DNA from: a bacterium
GTDB taxonomy: Bacteria > RBG-13-61-14 > DATKZS01
Length of the DNA stretch: 64,000 bases
Reading direction: 5' to 3'
Assembly: GCA_963674965.2 (NCBI GenBank)
Contig: CAXXFL010000003.1
Coordinates: 1-64,000 of the forward strand
The position numbers and the translations under genes are program-made. A model generated the notes under the pieces. The model saw only the letters and a program-made list of their open reading frames with translations. It was not told the origin of the DNA and searched no databases. This document shows positions 33,039 through 46,549 of this stretch, in pieces (within the stretch, counting starts at the first letter, position 1; each line of letters begins with the position of its first letter).

Positions 33039-35732
33039 TTATCTCGTCTCGCTTCTCCTTATCCTTATTATCGGCGCCTGGGCGTATCTCATCTTTTGCT
33101 TGCCGGCCATGTATTGGTCTTCCGGCTTGGCCCTGAATACCAGTTCCAGGTTCCCGCCCAGCGTCGTCTGACCTTGGAAGATTTCCACCTCCTCCATCGA
33201 CTCGTTCTTGGAGAAATAACCTAGAAGCTCGCCGGGCTCGCCCGTAAACCCGTCTCCGTCCAGGTCGGTCCCGGCGGCCAGGTAATAGCGGCCAGGGGGA
33301 ACGTTCCAGATCGAGTAATTATAGAAGTACTTCGATCCGGTCTCGGCCCAACCCGCCGAATCGCACGTCAGGTTTCCCCTTTCGCCGGGCCGGCATTGGT
33401 CGGGATCGAAGAGGACCACGAAAACGGGGACCTTGATCTCATCGAGGAAAACCAGGTTCACCCCGTCGGTGCCTCCGTTTTCCGAACCGACGACCAACTC
33501 GCCGTAATGGGGTCCCGCGGAAACGCCGCTGGGGTCGATGGCCACCGTCAAGGTCGATCCCTTAAGCTCGTGGTGATCCACCCAGGGTATTGAATAGGAC
33601 TCGACGGTCATTCCCGCCAGTCCGCCGGGGCCAAGGTTTATAACGCTTGTCACGCCCTCCGTTTGGTCCTGGTCGAAATAAAGGACTCGCGGCTCGACCG
33701 AGAGACGAGGCCCCTCTCGAACTTTGGCTCCCGCCAGAGAAAAGCCCGCCAGCGCCGCTTTCTCGGCGTTGATGATCCCGAATCCAAGATACGGATCGCG
33801 GCCGCCTCTGTCCCTTCCGGTTATGGTCCCTTCATATTCCGGATGGGTACCGCCTATCAACCGCAAGGCGTCTCCTTGCGTAATGGGATCAAGCCCGCCG
33901 GCGGACCTATAGGCCGACAATAAAAGCGCCAGCGCCCCGGACACGTGGGGGGCCGCCGCGGAAGTGCCGCCGAAGAAATCATACCGGAAAACCACCTCCC
34001 CGGAGCGGTCGTCCGCCCCGGTCGACCGGATCGAGTTCACGAAGCCGCCTCCGCTCAGCCTTGAACTTCCGTTGCCGGGCGCCGCCACCTCGACGTGCAA
34101 GCCGTAATTGGAGTACTCGGCCCTTCTTCCCGAAATATCGGCCGCGGCGACGGTTATCACGTTTTCATAAGCCGCGGGATACCTCGGCGCCCATGACCCG
34201 TCGTTGCCGGCGGAAGCCACCACCAACGATCCGGCCTCCATGGCGTCGGCCACCGCGCTCTCGAGGAGCCTCGAATCCCCGCTTCCGCCCAGGCTTAAAT
34301 TGATAATGTCCGCCTTTATTTTTTGTCCATCAACCTCGGCCGGAGAAACGGATTCCCCGTGGCACGTGCCCAACCCGGCGGCGAACCTGATCCCCTGGGC
34401 TATGTCATAGTTCACTCCACCTTCCCGGCCCAGCACCCTGACCGGCAGGATTTTCGCGTCCCTGGCCACGCCGGACACGCCTATGACGTTGTCGGTCACC
34501 GCCGAGATAACGCCGCTGACGTAAGTCCCGTGGAATGAACTGATGGAGCCGTACAGCTTGTCCCCCGCGTCGTAGGGGTCGGGGTCCACTCCGTCTCCAT
34601 CAAGGGAGCGGCCCGGGTCCAGGACCAGGTCGTGGCCCACCACCGTCATGCCGTCTCGCAAAACGTTCGCAAAAAGGTCGGGATGGTCGTATAAAACTCC
34701 CGTGTCGACCACGGCCACGATTATCCCGGACGCGTTGTCGATCACCTCCCACGCCCGATAGGCGGCGGTCAGGTCCAGACCCCATTGGGAAGAATAATAG
34801 AAATCGTTGGCTCCCAACGAGTCGGCTCGGTAGATGTAATTCGGCTCGGCGAACTCGACCTCGGGAAGCTCGGAAAGCCGCTCGATTATTTCCAAAGTGG
34901 CGGCGTAATCGTCAAGGGAAGCCGGCGTTCCGCCGCCGCGCTCGCCGGGCAAGGAAAAAGACAAAAGCGCGGTACCATCGTCTCCATCCACTTCCACTTC
35001 GGCTTCCACCATCTTGGCGGCCCGCGAAGCCAGGGCTCGGGGGCCGTTCGCCTGGGCCTGGAATTCCGGTTTGAATTTCACCACCGCCTGTCCGGGCACG
35101 AAGTTTCTTTCCGGGTCCTCGCTCGTAAATCCAAACGCGTCCTGGGCCGAGTCGGGCCAATCGGAGGACGTGGCCAGATTGTAGATCGAGCGTCCCGAAC
35201 GGCAGCGGACGAGGAGGGAATATTCCCCCGATTCAAGGATGGTTAGGGTCTCCTTTCCATCCTCGGCCCAATCGGAGGAATCGATCGATTCTCCGTCTTT
35301 AAACAGCGATAGTTTAACGTCTCCGGACTGGCCGTCGAACTCGACCCAGGCAACGTCGCCGCTCTCGAAAAAGACGCGGTAATAATCTTCAGGGTCCAGG
35401 GCGTGGTCCACGTGACCCGCGACCGCGTCGAGCCTTCCCATCCGCTGGCCGGGCAAAAAGTCGTTGTCATGGCGCCGCCTTCCCGGTTTCTCGCCCGGGA
35501 AGTCATGGTCCAGCGAGAGATAGGAGGGAACGGCCACTCGCCCCGACAGGCTGACGTCTCCGAACCTGACGGGACCGTCATGAAGCGGGCTCCCGCAAGC
35601 CCCCCCGAAAAAAAAGAGCAAATGAAACAAAGAAAGGGAAATTTTATTTATGAGGGATAAGACTCCTCGATCCGAAAGCCACTCCTCCATCATAATCGAG
35701 CGGCTTTTCAATTTGACTATTTCATTGAACAT
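33039..35732 (-). CDS. S8 (subtilisin-like) serine peptidase with accessory domains
   Basis: VAVVDTG, HGT, INLSLG, ASAGN and GTSAAAPHV catalytic motifs. Start codon uncertain. Confidence 0.92.
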   Translation of the reverse strand: MFNEIVKLKSRSIMMEEWLSDRGVLSLINKISLSLFHLLFFFGGACGSPLHDGPVRFGDVSLSGRVAVPSYLSLDHDFPGEKPGRRRHDNDFLPGQRMGRLDAVAGHVDHALDPEDYYRVFFESGDVAWVEFDGQSGDVKLSLFKDGESIDSSDWAEDGKETLTILESGEYSLLVRCRSGRSIYNLATSSDWPDSAQDAFGFTSEDPERNFVPGQAVVKFKPEFQAQANGPRALASRAAKMVEAEVEVDGDDGTALLSFSLPGERGGGTPASLDDYAATLEIIERLSELPEVEFAEPNYIYRADSLGANDFYYSSQWGLDLTAAYRAWEVIDNASGIIVAVVDTGVLYDHPDLFANVLRDGMTVVGHDLVLDPGRSLDGDGVDPDPYDAGDKLYGSISSFHGTYVSGVISAVTDNVIGVSGVARDAKILPVRVLGREGGVNYDIAQGIRFAAGLGTCHGESVSPAEVDGQKIKADIINLSLGGSGDSRLLESAVADAMEAGSLVVASAGNDGSWAPRYPAAYENVITVAAADISGRRAEYSNYGLHVEVAAPGNGSSRLSGGGFVNSIRSTGADDRSGEVVFRYDFFGGTSAAAPHVSGALALLLSAYRSAGGLDPITQGDALRLIGGTHPEYEGTITGRDRGGRDPYLGFGIINAEKAALAGFSLAGAKVREGPRLSVEPRVLYFDQDQTEGVTSVINLGPGGLAGMTVESYSIPWVDHHELKGSTLTVAIDPSGVSAGPHYGELVVGSENGGTDGVNLVFLDEIKVPVFVVLFDPDQCRPGERGNLTCDSAGWAETGSKYFYNYSIWNVPPGRYYLAAGTDLDGDGFTGEPGELLGYFSKNESMEEVEIFQGQTTLGGNLELVFRAKPEDQYMAGKQKMRYAQAPIIRIRRSETR

Positions 35733-38440: not shown

Positions 38441-38804
38441 GAAGGTGCTCATCGCCGACGACGACGACCTCTTAAGGGACGCCATCAGGCTTAGCATTCA
38501 AAAAGACGGCTACGAGATACACGAGGCCAGGGACGGGATCGAGGCCCTGAACAAGGCGGCGGAGGTAATACCGGACCTTATCATCCTCGACGTCATGATG
38601 CCGGGGATGATCGGCTACAATGTCTGCCAGAAATTGAAAAGCAATCCCGCGACTAAGGATATCTTCGTCATGTACCTGACGGCCAGGGGAAACGAGCTGA
38701 CCGACGGCGCGGTCAAGGAAAGCGGTGGAGACGGTTTCTTCGCCAAGCCCTTCTTGCCCACCGAGCTGCGGAAAAAGGTGCGGGATATCCTGGAGTCCAG
38801 ATAA
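38433..38804 (+). CDS. Single-domain response regulator
   Basis: LIADDD, PDLIILDVMMP, LTA and KPF motifs; overlaps the kinase stop. Confidence 0.93.
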   Translation: MTKKVLIADDDDLLRDAIRLSIQKDGYEIHEARDGIEALNKAAEVIPDLIILDVMMPGMIGYNVCQKLKSNPATKDIFVMYLTARGNELTDGAVKESGGDGFFAKPFLPTELRKKVRDILESR

Positions 38805-38821: not shown

Positions 38822-39895
38822 TCAGGCGCTCTTGATACGGGCCTCCCCCGTCTGGCCGTTCTTTTTTTGCGGAAGGTTCGCGTTAAGCACGTCGTAACTG
38901 ATAATTCCACGGTCATAGAGGGACTCGAGCTGGCGGCCCAGTCCCTGCATCCCTTCGGAAACCCCGGTGGCGATGGTCGTCTCGAGCTGGTGGACCTTGT
39001 TTTCCCGGATCAGGTTCCTCACCGCCTTGTTGGCCACCAGTATCTCCGAGGCCAGCACCCTGCCCTCCACGTCCACCCGGGGCAGGAGTCTCTGGTTGAT
39101 TATGCCCTGCAGGCACGAGGCCAACTGGTACCGGGTCTGGGCCTGTTGCCTGGAGGGGAACACGTCCACAATCCGGTTTATAGTCGAGGCCGAGTCGTTG
39201 GTGTGGATGGTGGCCAATACCAGGTGGCCCGTCTCGGCGGCCAGAAGGGCGGCCGCTATGGTATCCAGCTCGCGAAGCTCCCCAATCCCTATTACGTCGG
39301 GGTCCTGCCTCAGCGCGTGGATAAGGGCCGCGGGGAAGTCCTTTACGTCCATGCCCACCTCCTGCTGGATCACCAGGCTCCGGACGGGACGATGAACGTA
39401 CTCGATGGGGTCCTCGATGGTTATGACCTTGCAACGCCTCTCCCGGTTCACCATGTCCAGGATGGCGTTAAAGGTCGTGGTCTTGCCCGAGCCGGTCGAG
39501 CCGGTGATGAGGATCAAGCCGTTAGGACGGCGGGCCAGGTCCTCTACCACCTCGGGAATCCCAAGCTCCTCGAAGCTGGGGATGCGGGTTATGCCAAGGC
39601 GGATCGAGGCTTCCATCGCCCCCAGCCTGCGGTAAAGGCTCACCCGGAAATAGCCCAGGCCCTCGACCGATCTCGAGAAGCAAAGCTTCCAGTCCCGGGA
39701 AAAGGACTCGCGCTGGACGTCGTCGAGAAGGGGCGCCATCATGGACTCCACGTCGCCGACCTTGAGGGGCTCGGTCCCCTCCAGGCTCAGTATCTCTCCG
39801 TTGACCCGGATAACCGGGGGCACCCCGGCGGCAAGGTGAAGGTCAGAGGCCTCCCGCGCCCGCGCCGCCCCTATCAAGCCGTTAAGCGTCGTCAT
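38822..39895 (-). CDS. pilT: PilT/PilU-family ATPase
   Basis: ASDLHL, GSTGSGKTTT, TIEDPIE, ALRQDPD, AETGHLV and AVRNLIRE motifs; the start overlaps the upstream stop (TAATG). Confidence 0.9.
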   Translation of the reverse strand: MTTLNGLIGAARAREASDLHLAAGVPPVIRVNGEILSLEGTEPLKVGDVESMMAPLLDDVQRESFSRDWKLCFSRSVEGLGYFRVSLYRRLGAMEASIRLGITRIPSFEELGIPEVVEDLARRPNGLILITGSTGSGKTTTFNAILDMVNRERRCKVITIEDPIEYVHRPVRSLVIQQEVGMDVKDFPAALIHALRQDPDVIGIGELRELDTIAAALLAAETGHLVLATIHTNDSASTINRIVDVFPSRQQAQTRYQLASCLQGIINQRLLPRVDVEGRVLASEILVANKAVRNLIRENKVHQLETTIATGVSEGMQGLGRQLESLYDRGIISYDVLNANLPQKKNGQTGEARIKSA

Positions 39896-40920
39896 TACAA
39901 CTTCCTCCATTCGTATAGCGGCCAGTATATGCGAGCAATGCGCATCCAATTGTCGTATTGGGACAAATAACCAAGACTGTAATTGCCCCTTTGCTCAAAA
40001 TATACCTCCTGGAGAAATGCGTACTCGCCCTCCGGGACCACGGTGGGAGCCAGCTTGCAGGTGGTTATATCTCTTATGATAGCGGGGACATATGGCTGAG
40101 ATTCTTCCGGCGCTATTTCATCGTTAATATAGAGCACCCCACTATCCACCTCGACCACGTCGCCCTCGAGAGCGATAATCCTGTAAATGTTGTGAGCTCT
40201 ATATAAAAGAGCGCCCCGCTCCAATTTGTCCCGGCCGAAATCGACGGGAACGGAGAAAACCCTGTCCCCGTCGCGGACGTCCATAAAATAATGAGCGTCG
40301 TTAATGACCAGGAACCGGTTCGGGAATAAAGAGGAGATGAGAAAGTCAGCGGCCAAGTAAGGCAGCGATATAACCATGACCGCCGAGGCCGCGCTCATAA
40401 ACGCAACGTTAGCCTTGGCCGAGTGGCCTCTATCCTCGAGATGCAGCCTGGTCGCCTCGAACCCGGCGGCCAAGAGCGTAAAAAGAACCATAACCGGATA
40501 GCCGGGAATGGGAACGTGAAATACCATCTGCGCAAGGCCCGCCGCCACGAGAAGGGACGTGGCCAGGAGGAACGCCAGGCCTTCCTTTGGCCTGCCATGC
40601 AAAAAGAACCACGGGCCGAAAAGCATGCCCGAGGCGGCGACCCGAAATGGAGGCATATATTGCTCGAGTCTTTCCCGGAAACCCTCTTGGCCATCCCCGC
40701 GGACGTTCCCTATCGCATCCTCGATTCTTCTGACGGCTCTCGCCCGCGTCCCCAGGCTCGCGGCCACCGACTTTTTCCTCTCGAGCAGGTCCGTGGACCC
40801 CGAGCCGCCCACCTTGGGATAGGTCAGCGGGGCCGGTGGGGGCTCGCTCATCGAGGCCCCGCAGGCCATGCACTCCTCCATGCCCGGCATCACGTGGGCG
40901 TCGCACCTGGGGCACTTCAT
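39895..40920 (-). CDS. Zn-ribbon + multi-TM + S26 signal-peptidase-like domain protein
   Basis: CPRC..CMAC N-terminus; about four TM helices; GDRVF, RIIALEGDVVEV..LYIN and VPEGEY segments. Confidence 0.72.
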   Translation of the reverse strand: MKCPRCDAHVMPGMEECMACGASMSEPPPAPLTYPKVGGSGSTDLLERKKSVAASLGTRARAVRRIEDAIGNVRGDGQEGFRERLEQYMPPFRVAASGMLFGPWFFLHGRPKEGLAFLLATSLLVAAGLAQMVFHVPIPGYPVMVLFTLLAAGFEATRLHLEDRGHSAKANVAFMSAASAVMVISLPYLAADFLISSLFPNRFLVINDAHYFMDVRDGDRVFSVPVDFGRDKLERGALLYRAHNIYRIIALEGDVVEVDSGVLYINDEIAPEESQPYVPAIIRDITTCKLAPTVVPEGEYAFLQEVYFEQRGNYSLGYLSQYDNWMRIARIYWPLYEWRKL

Positions 40921-40923
40921 GAG

Positions 40924-41133
40924 TTACCTCTTGGCCGCCTTGACAAAGGGAGCTATCCTGATCCGGCTTTCCTTCTCGTAATACTCGTCCGTGGTGGCCG
41001 TGGCCTTGATCGGTCCAAGGAACTCACGGAATAACTCGCGCGCGTCAAGGCATCTGGGTCCTTTGATTCCCTTGACCCAAACCTTGACCTCGCCCTCCTT
41101 GGATATCTCGATGTCCAGTACTTCCCGTTCCAT
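40924..41133 (-). CDS. DUF2997-like small protein
   Basis: IEISKEGEVKVWVKGIKGPRC..LG..TDEYY pattern; RBS AAGGAG. Confidence 0.85.
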   Translation of the reverse strand: MEREVLDIEISKEGEVKVWVKGIKGPRCLDARELFREFLGPIKATATTDEYYEKESRIRIAPFVKAAKR

Positions 41134-41165
41134 GACGCGACTCCTTCCATTCGTCCTTGTCAAAG

Positions 41166-41948
41166 CTAATCCCTGGTTCCGGTCAGGCTCCGGATTCTTT
41201 TCCAGACGCTCGTTTTGGCCAGGTCGTTTTTCAATTTTTTAGCCTCGTCCAGGTCCGGCCTGACGGCGAGGGCGTCCTCCACGTGGGTCAGGGCGGACTC
41301 CCGTTTGCCCGCGGCGTAAAAAGCCTGCGCCAGCCTGAGATGATTTATGGCCTCCCTCGGCTCGAGATCGACCGCCTTGGCCAGGTATTTTACCGCCTCG
41401 CGGTGGCGTCCGTGCAGGATCAGCATCTCCCCCGCCCGCCTCATGATCCACCACCTGGAGACGCCGCCCACCTCGAGGGACTTGTTAACGCAGTGCTCGG
41501 CGCTCGGAAGCTTGCCGGAAATTACGAGGGCCTCGGCCCGGCAGAGCCAGATAAGCCAGTGGTCCTTTTTCACCCTCTGGGCCGTGTCCAGAAACCCCAT
41601 GGCCTTTTCGACCATTCCCATCCGGGCCAGGGCCGAGGCCCGGGCAGCGAAGCAGGGTCCTGAACCGGGGCAGTGCTCGAGGCCCCTCGCGGCCCAAAGC
41701 GCCGCCTCATCGTGCTCGCCCATGTCGAGGAGGGCCAGGCATTGGCCCACCCAGGCCTCCTCGAGCTGGAGGTCCTGGGAAAGAGCCCTCGAGTAATACT
41801 TGAGGGCCGCCTCGCTCGCGCCCGCGTGCATGGCCCGGGTCGCCCGCTCGAGATAAAAAACGTGGTCGCGGACCTTCACGTCGTCAGTCGGAAGAGCGTC
41901 CGGCTTCCCGACTCGCTCGTCCAGTTCCAAATATTCTCCGCGTCCCAT
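41166..41948 (-). CDS. Tetratricopeptide-repeat protein
   Basis: Multiple TPR-pattern helical repeats (ALKYYSRAL, AWVGQ, AVDLEP). Confidence 0.85.
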   Translation of the reverse strand: MGRGEYLELDERVGKPDALPTDDVKVRDHVFYLERATRAMHAGASEAALKYYSRALSQDLQLEEAWVGQCLALLDMGEHDEAALWAARGLEHCPGSGPCFAARASALARMGMVEKAMGFLDTAQRVKKDHWLIWLCRAEALVISGKLPSAEHCVNKSLEVGGVSRWWIMRRAGEMLILHGRHREAVKYLAKAVDLEPREAINHLRLAQAFYAAGKRESALTHVEDALAVRPDLDEAKKLKNDLAKTSVWKRIRSLTGTRD

Positions 41949-41983
41949 TGCTTATTCCTCCAATAGTCCCGCCCCGAAGTCGG

Positions 41984-42451
41984 TCAGCTCATCCTGTGCA
42001 TCTTGATCTTGATACGGCCGTCCTCGTCCACTTCCTCTTGCCCTGTTTCATAGCCGCGCCTCTCCAGCTCGACCATCATCTTCTGGTAGGCGTACTGTTG
42101 GCGGACCCTTCCTATGACGCGCGCGCCCTCCTCCTCGAGCTGGGACTTGGTCATGTTGGCGCCCTTTACGTGCACGGCGAAGCGGCCGCGGGGGTCCTTG
42201 TAAAACTCGACCTGGACCCCGTCGCGCTGAAGGGTGACCCGCTCGTCCTCGGCCAGGGCCTCGGCTATAACGCGCGACCGTTCCATGGCGACCTCGACCT
42301 CGTTCATCGACTCGAGGTCGCGAGACTGGAAAGCCCCCCTCGCCGCCCGCCGATAGCCAAGGGCGCCGGCGGCGGCCGCGGCCGCGGCGCAAAAGGCCGG
42401 CCATCCCCCGGCCGCCATCACCAGCGGCGTGACCACGAATATACAAGACAT
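41984..42451 (-). CDS. DUF1257 (Ycf35)-like protein with hydrophobic N-terminus
   Basis: QQYAYQKMMVELERRGY..EEVDEDGRIKIKM C-terminal pattern; adjacent to the Ycf46-like ATPase. Confidence 0.75.
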   Translation of the reverse strand: MSCIFVVTPLVMAAGGWPAFCAAAAAAAGALGYRRAARGAFQSRDLESMNEVEVAMERSRVIAEALAEDERVTLQRDGVQVEFYKDPRGRFAVHVKGANMTKSQLEEEGARVIGRVRQQYAYQKMMVELERRGYETGQEEVDEDGRIKIKMHRMS

Positions 42452-42466
42452 GGCTTTTCCTCCCTC

Positions 42467-44020
42467 TTAAAACTCGATATTGCGGGCCGCGGGGACCTGA
42501 GACCCCTCCTCCTCCGGCGTGGCCCTTCGAGCCCGGCCGGCGGCCCATTTACGAAGACCGTCTATCTCCTCCTCCATGGTGCGAGAAAGAGGGACCGTCT
42601 CGAGCACGGCCTCCAAGAGGTGGCCCTGCGAAAGGGGCTCGCCCCGCTCGTAGGAGGCGTACATGCCCGAGACCACCACCTCCTCGATCTCGGCCCCCGA
42701 GAACCCCCGAGTCCTCTCGCTCAGGGACTTGACGTCGTAAGCGGCGGGGTCCATGCCCCGCCGGACAAGGTGAATGCGGAATATCTCCGAGCGCTCGATC
42801 GCCTGGGGAAGGTCAACGAAAAATATCTCGTCAAATCGGCCCTTCCTTAAAAACTCCGCCGGAAGCTCGGAGATGTCGTTGGCCGTGGCCATCACGAACA
42901 CCGGCGCCGTCTTCTCCTGAAGCCAGGTGATAAAACCGCCGAACACCCTAGCCGCCGTGCCCCCGTCGGAGGAGCCCGAGCTCCTGGTGCCGGCGAAGGC
43001 CTTCTCCACCTCGTCCACCCACATGATGGCGGGCGCCACCTGCTCGGCCACCTCGATGGCCCTCCGCAGGTTGTCCTCCGAGCTGCCGACCAGGCTCGAG
43101 AAAACGCGGCCCACGTCCAGCCTTAACAGAGGCATCTGCCACCTGCCCGCCAGGGCCTTGGCCGCCAGGCTCTTGCCGCATCCCTGCACGCCGATAAGCA
43201 GCACGCCCTTCGGATATGGAAGCCCCAGCTTTCTCGCGCCCTCGTCGAAACCCAGGCGCCGCCGGTCCATCCATTCCTTCAGGGTGCGAAGGCCGCCCAC
43301 GTCCGACAGGCCGAAATTGGAGTCGTAATACTCGAGGGCGCCCGAGCGCTTGATGAGTTTTTCCTTTTCCCGGATCACCTTCTTCACGTCCTCAGTGGTG
43401 AGTCTTCCCCCCTCGACCAGGATTTTGGAAAGAACGTTCTCGGCCTCGTCCCTGGTGAGTCCCATGGCCGCCGAGGTCAGACGCTCCCTGACCCGGGCCT
43501 CGACTTTTATGTTGAGGTCGGTCCTCGAGTTGACCTCCCTGGCCGTGCGGTCGATCAACTCGCCCAGCTCCTCCCGCTCGGGAAGACCGAACTCGACCGC
43601 GGTCATTTCCTTCTCCAGCTCGACCGGGGTCTCCAGGCGGGGCGACACCAGCACCAGGCTTTTATAAGAAGTCTTTAAATAGGACCCAACCTCCCTGAGA
43701 CGCCGGGCCACGACGGGATTGCCCAGGAAGGGGTGGAAGTCGAGCAGGACGAAGATGGCCGGCTCCATGAACTTCACCACGTGGTCGAGAGCGGCCAGCG
43801 GGTCCTGGGTCGAGTTGTCGCGGGCGTTTTTCGATTCCATGGCCGTTCCCGGCGCGTGGAAACCCATGCTCGAGGACCACAGAAGAAGGCGCTTTTCCCT
43901 GGACTTGGCTATCTGGTTCAGGACCTCGATCACCCTCGTTTCCTCGTGGCTGATGACGGCTATGAGAGGGTACCTGGCCCTGATCAGGACCTCCAGTTCA
44001 CGCGCCGCGTTTTTGGACAT
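42467..44020 (-). CDS. Ycf46-like AAA+ ATPase (degenerate N-terminal + active C-terminal AAA domain)
   Basis: [36 protein letters not shown] and [15 protein letters not shown] motifs. Confidence 0.93.
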
Positions 44021-45080
44021 CTTCCATCCCCCTTATCTCCTCGAACATCTGAAGCAAACCCGGCGTCAGGTGTGGAATAATCACCCTGCCCGCCTCGTCG
44101 ATTATGAGTTCCCCCGTTTCTCCCAGCCAGGCCCTTATCGAGTCGGAGGCCATTCCTCTTTCCTTTATCGTCTCGTTCTTCTGGTAGGGCGCCTCGAGGT
44201 CCAGTCCCGCGTCCCGGGCGGCCTCGACCAGTTTCTTCACGTCCAGCGGGTCCCGCCTTTGCCTGAGTTCCCTGCAATAGGAAGTCCGGGACTTAGGCGG
44301 CGGGACATAGTTGTCGAGAATATGGAACCTGAGATAGGGAAAGCGCTCGGCCATCAGCCTCACCGCGGGAAAGCCGCAGCATTTGAGGTGCCCCGGCAGT
44401 AAAAGGTGCCTCACTATCACCCTCAGCCCGGCGTCCACGGCGCGCTCGATATTTCGAGTCACCGTTTCCATGTAATTCTTTACCCCGCTTATCCAGCCCG
44501 CGCAGTCGTCGTTGCCGAAGTGAACGTCCGCCACTACCACGTCGGCGGCGTCGGCCGCGGCGTCGGCCACGAACGATCCATAGTACATATTGGAGTTCCA
44601 CACCCGGGGCCGGACGTTTATCGCGCCGAAAAGGGCAAGGGCGGCGGGAAGGTTCGTCGCCGGCTCGCCGCCCACGGCGCAAAGGCTCCTGGCGGCGGAA
44701 AGGCCCGGGTCGAGAAAAAGAGGATGCCCCTCGAGCGGACGGGATTGGTCCTTGCGATTTTCCTTGCCCGAGTTCCTGGAGCAAACTTTATCGGCCAGGT
44801 AACAGAAGCGACAGGAGAGGTTACAACCGGTGAAGAAGACCTCGTAGGCCGGGTTAAGGGCGCGCTCCTCGTTCAAGAGCAACCCGGCGTAAAACACTTC
44901 GCCAAAGGCGGAGGCCCCGCATTTTCCAACGGCCCCGGCCAGACGATTCACGCCGCATTCCCATGGACAGAGGCGACAATTTTCGAGTTCCTTTAAAGAG
45001 GAGAGAACCAGCGACCTTATCCTCGAGTCCTCGACGTGTTCCAAGAGCCCATGACCCTGAAAAGCTCGCGCCGCTCTCAT
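43998..45080 (-). CDS. PflX-like radical SAM protein with C-terminal extension
   Basis: CRLCPWECGVNR..GKC, FTGCNLSCRFC, VGGEP, VWNSNMY and IVRHLLLPGH motifs; ATG preceded by AAGGAG. Confidence 0.9.
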   Translation of the reverse strand: MRAARAFQGHGLLEHVEDSRIRSLVLSSLKELENCRLCPWECGVNRLAGAVGKCGASAFGEVFYAGLLLNEERALNPAYEVFFTGCNLSCRFCYLADKVCSRNSGKENRKDQSRPLEGHPLFLDPGLSAARSLCAVGGEPATNLPAALALFGAINVRPRVWNSNMYYGSFVADAAADAADVVVADVHFGNDDCAGWISGVKNYMETVTRNIERAVDAGLRVIVRHLLLPGHLKCCGFPAVRLMAERFPYLRFHILDNYVPPPKSRTSYCRELRQRRDPLDVKKLVEAARDAGLDLEAPYQKNETIKERGMASDSIRAWLGETGELIIDEAGRVIIPHLTPGLLQMFEEIRGMEDVQKRGA

Positions 45081-45254
45081 GTTTATCTCCTTTCCGTCAG
45101 TTCCCCCCTCGTGACATTCTCCCTCCATCCATTCAGTTTGATGATTCCCGATTCCGCGGGGATTCAAGATTTCATCCCCATATGGCTCGACTTCAAACAT
45201 AACGTTCATAAAAACGAAGGAAAAGAAATAAAGTTTCATTCGCTGGAGCGGAAT

Positions 45255-45288
45255 AAAAAAAAAGCCTTCACGGGATTCATGAAGGCTT
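45255..45288 (-). terminator. Rho-independent terminator after the lipoprotein gene
   Basis: Minus strand AAGCCTTCATG..CGTGAAGGC followed by T9. Confidence 0.8.
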
Positions 45289-45322: not shown

Positions 45323-46549
45323 TCAAGGGCCGGGGGGGACCGCGATATCAAGGACCGATCTTCTGGTGGAGGTTTGGCCGTCGCTCGAGATTATCTCGAT
45401 ATCTATGACAAGTTCTCCCGGCGCCGTGCCCCCGTAAAAAGCCGCGTTAAAAAGCGTCCCCTGGAAGGCGTCGTCAAAAAAAAGCGCGGTGCTCCCGTTG
45501 CTGACGAAAGTGACGCCCGGCGACGGGGCGCTCTCGATGGTAATGGTCACGTCGGCCAGTTCTCCTTCCGGGTCCCTGAAGGAGTACTGAAGAGGGTTGG
45601 GAATGGTCAAATAATAAACCGTGGCCCCGAAAGGGCCCTCGATTACCGGCGCCGTGTTCTTGGTCCAGTTGACGCCCGCGGGCGCGAGAGATGTGACAAG
45701 GTCCGGATTCTCCACGTGGAGGGCGAAGCGGCCCGAGGCGACCTCAACCAGGTAAACCGACTGGTCGGTACCTTTCACCCAGGCCTGCCCCAGGCTTTTA
45801 TCTCTGGCCCGACAAAAATCGAGCGGGCCGGGAGAAGACACCAGTCGTATTTCAGACCCGTCTTCGCGCAGGAAAAGCCCGCGGGTCCCGGCCACGAGAA
45901 GGTCGCCGTTGTCGAAAACCTGCACGTCCATGGCGCCCGGTCCGAAGTCGGCGATTTCCTCGGCCGCGCCGTCCTCCCCATACAAGGGTTTGGCCATAAG
46001 CTTTCCGCAGCCGTAAAGTATCCAGGCGCTTGTCCCTCCCGGGGCGATGTCGAAGGCGACCGGCCTCGAGCACCCCTCGACGGGCGAATCCAGGTCGCCG
46101 GTCAAGTCCAGCTCGGAGGTGAACAGCACGTCGGCCTCCTCGATAAGGTTCACGCCGGTGGTGGTGTCCCCGCCGAGCGCGTATAACTTGCCGTCCGCCC
46201 ATCCAAGGCGAAGGTCGATGAGGGAACCCGACTTTATTTCGTCCAGCCTCGTCTTGGGATACATCATCCCGTCCTCGAGGTTGAGTTCCAAGACCTCGTA
46301 ATCCTCGGTCACCACGTAGGCCGCCAGCGCGTCCCGCTTAAGAAGGAAATGTATGAACTTGAGGTCCAGATCGACCTCCTCGGCGAACTCGAGCCTGGTC
46401 CTCGATCCATAGGCGTCGGTCTCGAAAATTCTTCCGCCGGCCACCAGGTAATAGACCCTTTGGGCGAATTTGTATTCCGAGTCCGTTTCCACGCACGCGA
46501 CGGCCGCCGCGAGGAGAGCGAAAAGAAATATCAAGCGCGAGGTTTTCAT
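45323..46549 (-). CDS. Hypothetical lipoprotein (beta-rich)
   Basis: Signal peptide with lipobox-like AVAC. Confidence 0.7.
   Translation of the reverse strand: MKTSRLIFLFALLAAAVACVETDSEYKFAQRVYYLVAGGRIFETDAYGSRTRLEFAEEVDLDLKFIHFLLKRDALAAYVVTEDYEVLELNLEDGMMYPKTRLDEIKSGSLIDLRLGWADGKLYALGGDTTTGVNLIEEADVLFTSELDLTGDLDSPVEGCSRPVAFDIAPGGTSAWILYGCGKLMAKPLYGEDGAAEEIADFGPGAMDVQVFDNGDLLVAGTRGLFLREDGSEIRLVSSPGPLDFCRARDKSLGQAWVKGTDQSVYLVEVASGRFALHVENPDLVTSLAPAGVNWTKNTAPVIEGPFGATVYYLTIPNPLQYSFRDPEGELADVTITIESAPSPGVTFVSNGSTALFFDDAFQGTLFNAAFYGGTAPGELVIDIEIISSDGQTSTRRSVLDIAVPPGP

Follow-up and report, generated by a model that had tools for sequence, protein, structure and literature searches.

A conserved seven-gene cassette joins the Ycf46/Ycf35/DUF2997 module to a PilT-family ATPase, a TPR protein and a radical SAM enzyme

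The seven-gene locus

The stretch of DNA analysed here (the window) comprises the first 64,000 nucleotides of contig CAXXFL010000003.1 (assembly GCA_963674965.2), from a bacterium of the GTDB lineage RBG-13-61-14; DATKZS01. Its minus strand carries a compact cassette of seven genes that encode a radical S-adenosylmethionine (radical SAM) enzyme, an AAA ATPase (P0002), a DUF1257-like protein (P0003), a TPR protein, a DUF2997 protein, a protein with an S26 signal-peptidase fold and a PilT-family ATPase (Table 1). The cassette is a real extension of the uncharacterised Ycf46/Ycf35/DUF2997 module by a dedicated PilT and its predicted adaptor, and its products may form a machine at the cytoplasmic membrane.

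The genes are tightly packed, the junctions being, in order, a 23-bp overlap, gaps of 15, 35, 32 and 3 bp, and a TAATG overlap. A hairpin followed by a T run closes the upstream gene, and a convergent response-regulator gene ending at 38804 bounds the cassette downstream. This layout had been drawn in the original prediction and was confirmed base for base, although the hairpin on its own is weak evidence because the scan returned 15 terminator-like sites against 9.3 +/- 3.2 in shuffles. The family labels given there fared similarly well, with all seven families recovered in scans, but no model named Ycf46-like or PflX-like matched, and these names serve here as provisional labels for the AAA ATPase and the radical SAM enzyme.

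Table 1. Features of the cassette and its upstream boundary (positions in the window).
Feature	Position	Strand	Remarks
Intrinsic-terminator-like hairpin with T run	45253..45288	minus	closes the upstream gene; 11-pair stem 45288-45262
Radical SAM enzyme, 360 aa	45080-43998	minus	Radical_SAM match 5e-11
Module X	44019..44132	minus	small conserved module; here the C-terminal tail of the radical SAM enzyme
AAA ATPase (P0002), 517 aa	44020-42467	minus	AAA match 1.4e-25
DUF1257-like protein (P0003), 155 aa	42451-41984	minus	DUF1257 match 6.9e-6
TPR protein, 260 aa	41948-41166	minus	TPR match in family scan
DUF2997 protein, 69 aa	41133-40924	minus	DUF2997 match 2.5e-9
S26-like protein, 341 aa	40920-39895	minus	Peptidase_S26 match 1.4e-5; weak N-terminal Zn ribbon
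PilT ATPase, 357 aa	39895-38822	minus	TIGR01420 pilT_fam, 393 bits (cut-off 319)

Conservation and distribution of the cassette

Relatives of P0003 number 225 at 50% clustering. Of 218 candidates from a motif-based GTDB scan, 192 were confirmed; the best 80 loci, mostly from Planctomycetota with others from Armatimonadota and Verrucomicrobiota, make up the analysis set. Forty-five are well flanked, with at least 4 kb upstream and at least 5 kb downstream, and all seven genes are present on one strand in 42 of them, a count best read as 41 to 42 because L014 shows no more of the radical SAM than a fragment at its edge (E 1e-5). Three loci (L020, L028 and L036) each lack several cassette genes. 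Gene order varies, with at least five orders among the loci; the commonest (radical SAM, module X, AAA, DUF1257, DUF2997, S26, TPR, PilT) is found in 34 of the 45. The order seen in the window is shared by L078 and by the metagenome locus L008. Module X is present in 43 of the 45, as a separate gene in 38 and fused in 5. No additional protein family occurs in more than five of the best 80 loci, and the parts list of the cassette can therefore be regarded as closed.

Because this first set was selected by motif, random phylum samples were added and screened with a P0003 profile; the counts include the carrier used as centre. Matches were found in 9 of 301 Planctomycetota, 12 of 151 Armatimonadota, 7 of 251 genomes in the phylum of G044 (Verrucomicrobiota, as inferred from the tree) and 2 of 11 in another small phylum. 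The same profile matched none of 12 relatives in the window's own class that are 87-97% complete. The distribution of the cassette is patchy, at 3-7% of three sampled phyla and none of these close relatives. The 24 loci examined from these samples comprise 22 strong and 2 weak hits. Among the strong hits, two had been part of the first set and two are near-identical. The full seven genes are present in 19 of the 22; of the others, two are truncated at contig ends and one has no clear radical SAM. Both weak hits are without TPR and PilT.

The original prediction that the flanking genes belong with the AAA/DUF1257/DUF2997 trio is thus borne out in the well-flanked and the random loci alike. The parts of the cassette are co-inherited. 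Pairwise gene-tree distances across 63 cassettes correlate with Spearman values of 0.75-0.92, a figure that kinship inflates, and this fits inheritance of the cassette as a block. A control set of 401 genomes contained a Pfam DUF1257 match in 22. Leaving aside the window's genome there are 27 matches, 21 of which lie in the 20 regions examined. Among 15 loci of other DUF1257 types, 14 of which lack the long hydrophobic start of P0003, the cassette TPR or S26 protein is never found; a radical SAM is present in one, and a PilT, placed before a PilC-like gene, in one. Of the five P0003-type loci in the same control, four have both TPR and PilT, two of these being already in the set. This contrast indicates that the PilT/TPR/S26 extension tracks the P0003 type of DUF1257 and not the trio in general. 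A locus search of genomes that used P0003 as its only query confirmed none of 192 pattern matches.

Several loci depart from the common plan. Variable proteins of 310-350 aa lie inside the cassette at L040:10705-11760, L054:5567-6547, L061:11111-12055, L058:2516-3478 and L080:6958-7896; the three that were scanned (L040, L058 and L080) have no Pfam match. The S26-like gene is duplicated in L010, L012, L019, L047 and L077. At L179:7780-8337 a different hydrophobic-start DUF1257 variant occurs with AAA and DUF2997, without TPR, S26 or PilT.

A patchy, self-contained cassette with variable inserted and duplicated membrane or secreted genes could be a system for anti-phage or inter-bacterial conflict, in which, upon triggering, the ATPases together with a radical reaction stop growth or make the cell permeable, with the DUF1257 variant as the membrane effector. 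The same genome has a second AAA-DUF2997-radical SAM cluster, low in GC (0.52) and next to an SNF2 helicase, which would also suit such a role. However, no defence genes recur as neighbours, a search of viral contigs with A3 gave 43 pattern hits of which none was confirmed as a relative, and PADLOC 2.0 (2023 library) returned only generic ATPase matches (IetA, mad8) with no S8 protease partner, and nothing for the other five proteins. The window's copy, moreover, sits downstream of ftsY, rpoD and dnaG (gene names assigned by eye), and its GC (0.615) and GC3 (GC at third codon positions) are both host-like. We consider this explanation improbable, although it may overlap with the one that we prefer, a machine that remodels membrane-bound protein assemblies.

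The PilT clade and its predicted TPR partner

The cassette PilT has the family score of PilT/PilU proteins as well as their Walker, Asp and His boxes, and Walker A and B, both boxes and R84, R99 and R196 are found in 60 of 60 sequences. A tree of 34 cassette and 44 other PilT-family proteins from 11 genomes was built with a PilB outgroup (FastTree and fast IQ-TREE). All 34 cassette proteins form one clade (FastTree 0.996; Shimodaira-Hasegawa-like approximate likelihood ratio test, SH-aLRT, 88), whose sister is a pair of non-cassette PilTs, and the enclosing clade holds pilB-pilT-pilC-type sequences (SH-aLRT 95). The earlier expectation that this PilT is distinct from ordinary pilus PilTs holds in so far as the clade is cassette-specific, but the clade is nested among the ordinary proteins. 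Ten fully surveyed genomes have one cassette-type copy each. Residues C72, R122, N143, R154, K156, Q178 and H193 are diagnostic of the clade, and a C-terminal motif, YxxGxI[TS]Y[DE], is present in 26 of 33 cassette PilTs plus the window's own and in 1 of 44 others.

No type IVa pilus part (pilin, PilB, PilC, secretin or prepilin peptidase) was found among the seven proteins or their conserved neighbours; type IVa pilus genes are present elsewhere in carrier genomes. The claim that pilus genes are missing nearby is locally true, but the rest of the window's genome has six further PilT-family genes, one of them in a pilB-pilT-pilC-like operon on contig C7 (neighbours named by eye).

The TPR protein carries an N-terminal RF..LE motif in 63 of 64 sequences and a basic amphipathic C-terminal tail, with a median hydrophobic moment of 0.77, compared with 0.40 in the body (window protein: 0.53). 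Its profile has 151 PDB hits, the best 60 of which are generic TPR proteins, and we know of no solved TPR-PilT complex. Structure prediction gave the proposed TPR adaptor a specific partner. In a model of four chains (TPR, residues 1-110 of the S26-like protein, DUF2997, and PilT as the partner), the TPR-PilT pair scored 0.67, compared with 0.00 for the best of three controls and 0.00 when the TPR was replaced. This mark is reached by 116 of 157 solved complexes and by 2 of 215 mismatched pairs. The runs agree in at least 34% of contacts, with a predicted local distance difference test value (pLDDT) of at least 86 for the partner. The modelled interface pairs TPR residues 117-156 with PilT residues 274-275 and 325-334, and its TPR side includes D121, R137 and K156 (55 of 55) and C153 (54 of 55). 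The model thus supports binding of the TPR protein to the C-terminal helices of PilT. No PilT contacts with the S26 N-terminus or DUF2997 are named confidently in the four-chain model, which is uninformative on this point.

The DUF1257 variant and DUF2997

P0003 is homologous to classical DUF1257 over its full length (prob 98). The first strand and helix of the domain have become an uncharged run of median length 34; in 96 of 105 sequences this run is no shorter than 28 aa. It usually carries two prolines and is a probable membrane anchor. A run of this length is long for a single transmembrane helix and presumably resembles the hairpin anchors of monotopic proteins. The structure model of P0003 has a pLDDT of 84, with residues 1-13 poor. 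Its best VIA-align match is an adaptin appendage (Z 6.0, root-mean-square deviation 3.4, 87 aligned), which is below the reliability level of the tool, and the fold has low-Z matches only, to helix-grip/TBP-like domains (KA1, adaptin appendage, PGM domain 4). Foldseek with this model found nothing at E<=0.001. There is no pilin among the structural matches, which excludes nothing, and atlas searches gave nothing beyond family labels. The DUF2997 protein is marked by an invariant G-x-K-G-x-x-C motif, with C28 in 76 of 76 sequences, and a T-x-E-Y-Y tail.

The AAA, DUF1257 and DUF2997 genes are adjacent and belong to the same three families as the cyanobacterial and plastid ycf46-ycf35-DUF2997 genes (slr0373-slr0374-slr0376, Synpcc7942_0416-0418 and DUF2997-ycf35-fed7). 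The last of these clusters is described in the available part of PMC4284462, while Ycf35 is called functionally uncharacterised, with an N-terminal MSH motif, in that of PMC13060386. In the cassette the MSH start is swapped for the uncharged segment of about 34 residues, the proteins beginning with MSA, MSC or MSV and a hydrophobic run. The Fe-S partner also differs, being a ferredoxin in the cyanobacterial cluster and a radical SAM enzyme here. The cassette further adds the TPR protein, the dead S26 protein, PilT and module X, and the sampled carriers are non-cyanobacterial.

The S26-like protein

The S26-like protein is made up of a Zn ribbon, a PP(R) motif and three predicted transmembrane helices, followed by an S26 signal-peptidase fold that is matched by profile to SpsB (E 2.7e-13) and by Foldseek (8.6e-4). 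Lys occupies the catalytic-Lys position in none of 70 sequences (D44, G13, N7, E5, A1; Tyr in the window), and the SM motif is absent from all 71, whereas a housekeeping LepB control has both. The protein is thus catalytically dead, as its earlier label of pseudo-signal peptidase implied. The S26 domain is also dispensable: it is missing from the sole copy in L016, L161 and L162, and the whole gene was not detected in L180, so that the conserved core is the Zn ribbon and membrane part. An S26 fold without the Ser-Lys dyad is also found in SipA/LepA of Streptococcus pyogenes, a non-catalytic peptidase homologue that is essential for pilus polymerisation (PMC4049620, in its available part). Since SpsB outscores SipA, the dyad was probably lost independently in the cassette. 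Unlike SipA/LepA, the cassette protein adds the Zn ribbon and three transmembrane helices, is dispensable, and comes without a sortase pilus.

The S26 profile and model also match SipA/LepA, and the DUF1257 variant combines a hydrophobic N-terminus with a small alpha/beta domain. It is conceivable on these grounds that the cassette is a new export or filament system, with the DUF1257 variant as a pilin-like subunit, the dead S26 protein as a SipA-type chaperone, PilT as the motor and the AAA ATPase recycling subunits. This alternative comes nearest to the small-protein polymer of the original prediction, which is so far unsupported, and we hold it to be quite improbable. No prepilin-type leader is visible in the DUF1257-variant sequences, whose N-terminus corresponds by homology to the opening strand-helix of soluble DUF1257; the conserved neighbours include no platform, secretin or prepilin peptidase; and the putative chaperone domain is the part lost in some loci. 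In the membrane-remodelling machine that we prefer, the S26 domain would instead be an optional part of an anchor.

The AAA ATPase

The AAA ATPase is of the classical type, with intact Walker A and B motifs and a second region of homology; residues K283, D336, E337, R392 and R395 are found in 71 of 71 sequences. It is closely similar to the AAA genes at classical DUF1257 loci. The nearest solved structures are those of Cdc48/p97, segregases of the same classical clade, but the cassette protein has a single recognisable AAA domain, Leu (L310) instead of an aromatic residue in pore loop 1 (69 of 71), and no ubiquitin-type partners. A C-terminal tail, [KRH][ILMF]E[LFIMV], is conserved in 67 of 71. 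This tail (42467-42490, minus strand) and the N-terminal motif of the TPR protein (41925-41948, minus strand) have a common basic-hydrophobic-Glu-hydrophobic pattern across the families, and the two might compete for one site.

Two related loci lie elsewhere in the same genome (G000). A lone Ycf46-like AAA protein, 41% identical to P0002, is encoded at L005 (C7:102368-103876, plus strand), without the small partners and without the C-terminal tail. The second cluster, at L004:5863-11522 (C6:310862-316521, plus strand), encodes a membrane protein, a vWA protein, an AAA ATPase, a 259-aa protein and a related radical SAM enzyme. It converges on the SNF2 helicase gene mentioned above and is another variant of the AAA/DUF2997/radical SAM core. 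The DUF2997 part at the C-terminus of the 259-aa protein is solid; a DUF1257 part was set aside as weak (hhalign 15%), as was module X at the N-terminus of the radical SAM enzyme, which was seen by eye and gained no support from a hidden Markov model (HMM; E 0.4).

The radical SAM enzyme and module X

A CxxxCxxC motif at 86/90/93 and a GGEP motif place the first gene product in the radical SAM superfamily. Extra ligands may be provided by C35, C38, C42 and C54 and by H231-x-x-C234-C235; CxxxCxxC and these seven further Cys/His residues are invariant in 59 of 59 homologues. A comparison with PDB sequences gave no match at E<=0.01. The protein does not score as a glycyl-radical activating enzyme (TIGR02494, 19.7 bits against a cut-off of 174), and no cognate glycyl-radical enzyme is a conserved neighbour at the cassette loci. 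The likeness of module X to DUF2997 is only suggestive, with 83% by hhalign and no significant HMM match. Judged from the sequences, the catalytic residues are intact in the two ATPases and in the radical SAM enzyme.

Gene starts, promoter candidates and neighbouring genes

A longer TTG start for the radical SAM gene (45326) was rejected, as translation would run through the terminator; the ATG at 45080 has a Shine-Dalgarno site. An antisense open reading frame of 367 aa (38867-39970) is treated as a shadow of pilT. Between the terminator and the radical SAM start lies a sequence of the form TGAAAC-N16-CGTT (45238-45213, minus strand), which we take to be the consensus of extracytoplasmic function (ECF)-type promoters. 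Its conservation was not borne out, with the pattern in 4 of 66 upstream regions, compared with 7 when the reverse strand is read, and 12 matches genome-wide, and a de novo motif search of the cassette upstream regions found none. An ECF-type sigma gene is located upstream of the cassette in four other loci (L026, L058, L070 and L080).

Just upstream of the terminator, 45323-46549 (minus strand) encodes a 408-aa lipoprotein-like protein with no Pfam or NCBIfam match. An 897-aa subtilisin-like (S8) protease, identified by eye (33039-35732, minus strand), is divergent from a PDZ/GAF histidine kinase and unrelated to the cassette.

A possible two-motor machine at the membrane

There are membrane signals on three cassette parts. 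Our preferred explanation, which we hold tentatively and place a little short of an even chance, is that the cassette encodes a self-contained machine located at the cytoplasmic membrane, on its inner face, in which two ring ATPases remodel or extract membrane-bound protein assemblies. The hydrophobic DUF1257 variant would be a hairpin-anchored scaffold that pairs with DUF2997, and the AAA ATPase would dock on this scaffold, possibly via its conserved tail. Since its pore loop is non-aromatic, the AAA protein may be a disassembler rather than a processive unfoldase. The TPR protein could sit on the membrane via its amphipathic tail and give PilT its own dock, replacing the pilus platform PilC. 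The Zn-ribbon/transmembrane protein would serve as a membrane anchor; its S26 domain, optional and dead, would bind signal-peptide-like segments on the outside, as has been proposed for SipA. The radical SAM enzyme may modify or activate one of the components, and a candidate site is the invariant Cys of DUF2997. Such a machine would probably act during envelope stress or conflict, extracting membrane-bound assemblies or taking them apart. Stress-induced ycf46 operons are reported in cyanobacteria, in the available parts of 10.1101/2025.07.21.665879 and 10.1101/2020.12.15.422378.

Several observations weigh against this explanation. Planctomycete kin make up most of the loci. Helix 17-31 of P0003 is modelled with high confidence by AlphaFold and falls within a soluble-type fold in structural alignments, so that membrane insertion of the DUF1257 variant is not certain. 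The TPR-PilT score comes from a job of four chains with their own alignments that is unlike the calibration, and the other chains have a pLDDT of 58-62; conservation of the interface is barely above average (0.57 against 0.53 in TPR, 0.74 against 0.69 in PilT). Finally, the cassette PilT keeps an AIRNLIRE-like motif, with R293 and R297 in 33 of 33 sequences, and this motif is at the PilT-PilC interface in an AlphaFold 3 model (10.1101/2025.10.30.685630, in its available part). Other PilT-family genes are present in 20 of 20 carriers examined and PilC-family genes in 5 of 5, and the independence from pili suggested by the original prediction is not supported so far.

Alternatively, the cassette may be an add-on controller of host type IV pili, in which its PilT docks on host PilC as an ordinary retraction motor. 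The TPR protein would recruit or restrain PilT, and the other parts would sense a signal and force retraction or dismantling of the pilus, for example to remove phage receptors. The AIRNLIRE-like motif, the pilus genes of the carriers and the nesting of the cassette clade among ordinary PilTs all suit this alternative. However, pilus genes are also present in lineages that are mostly without the cassette, and their co-occurrence in carriers therefore says little. The lack of any pilus gene among the conserved neighbours and the wide occurrence of the AAA/DUF1257/DUF2997 core without PilT also speak against a pilus controller, and movement as a block between phyla would fit less well with reliance on a divergent host PilC. 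We judge it unlikely, though it deserves serious consideration.

Within the membrane machine that we prefer, the more specific proposal is that PilT has been taken out of the pilus, docks on the TPR protein instead of PilC, and works with a Cdc48-type AAA ATPase and a radical SAM enzyme on a membrane-anchored Ycf35/DUF2997 scaffold. This we see as a distinct possibility, with the balance tilted somewhat against it. The established role of PilT is to drive pilus retraction through PilC. A PilT clade equipped with a predicted adaptor of its own and lacking pilus genes would be a new use of the retraction motor, and the finding would be categorically new if this PilT proves pilus-independent. The seven-gene cassette is not described among the literature matches listed, whose scope did not extend to subscription papers and supplements; the cluster could appear in a comparative-genomics table.

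Ycf46 and Ycf35 have long been a puzzle in cyanobacteria and plastids. With its closed parts list, invariant residues and one predicted interface, the cassette makes the mechanism of Ycf46/Ycf35 directly testable. If the proposal is true, the cassette would define a new class of bacterial two-motor membrane-remodelling machine, and it would suggest Ycf35/DUF2997 as the general substrate-adaptor of Ycf46 in cyanobacteria and plastids.

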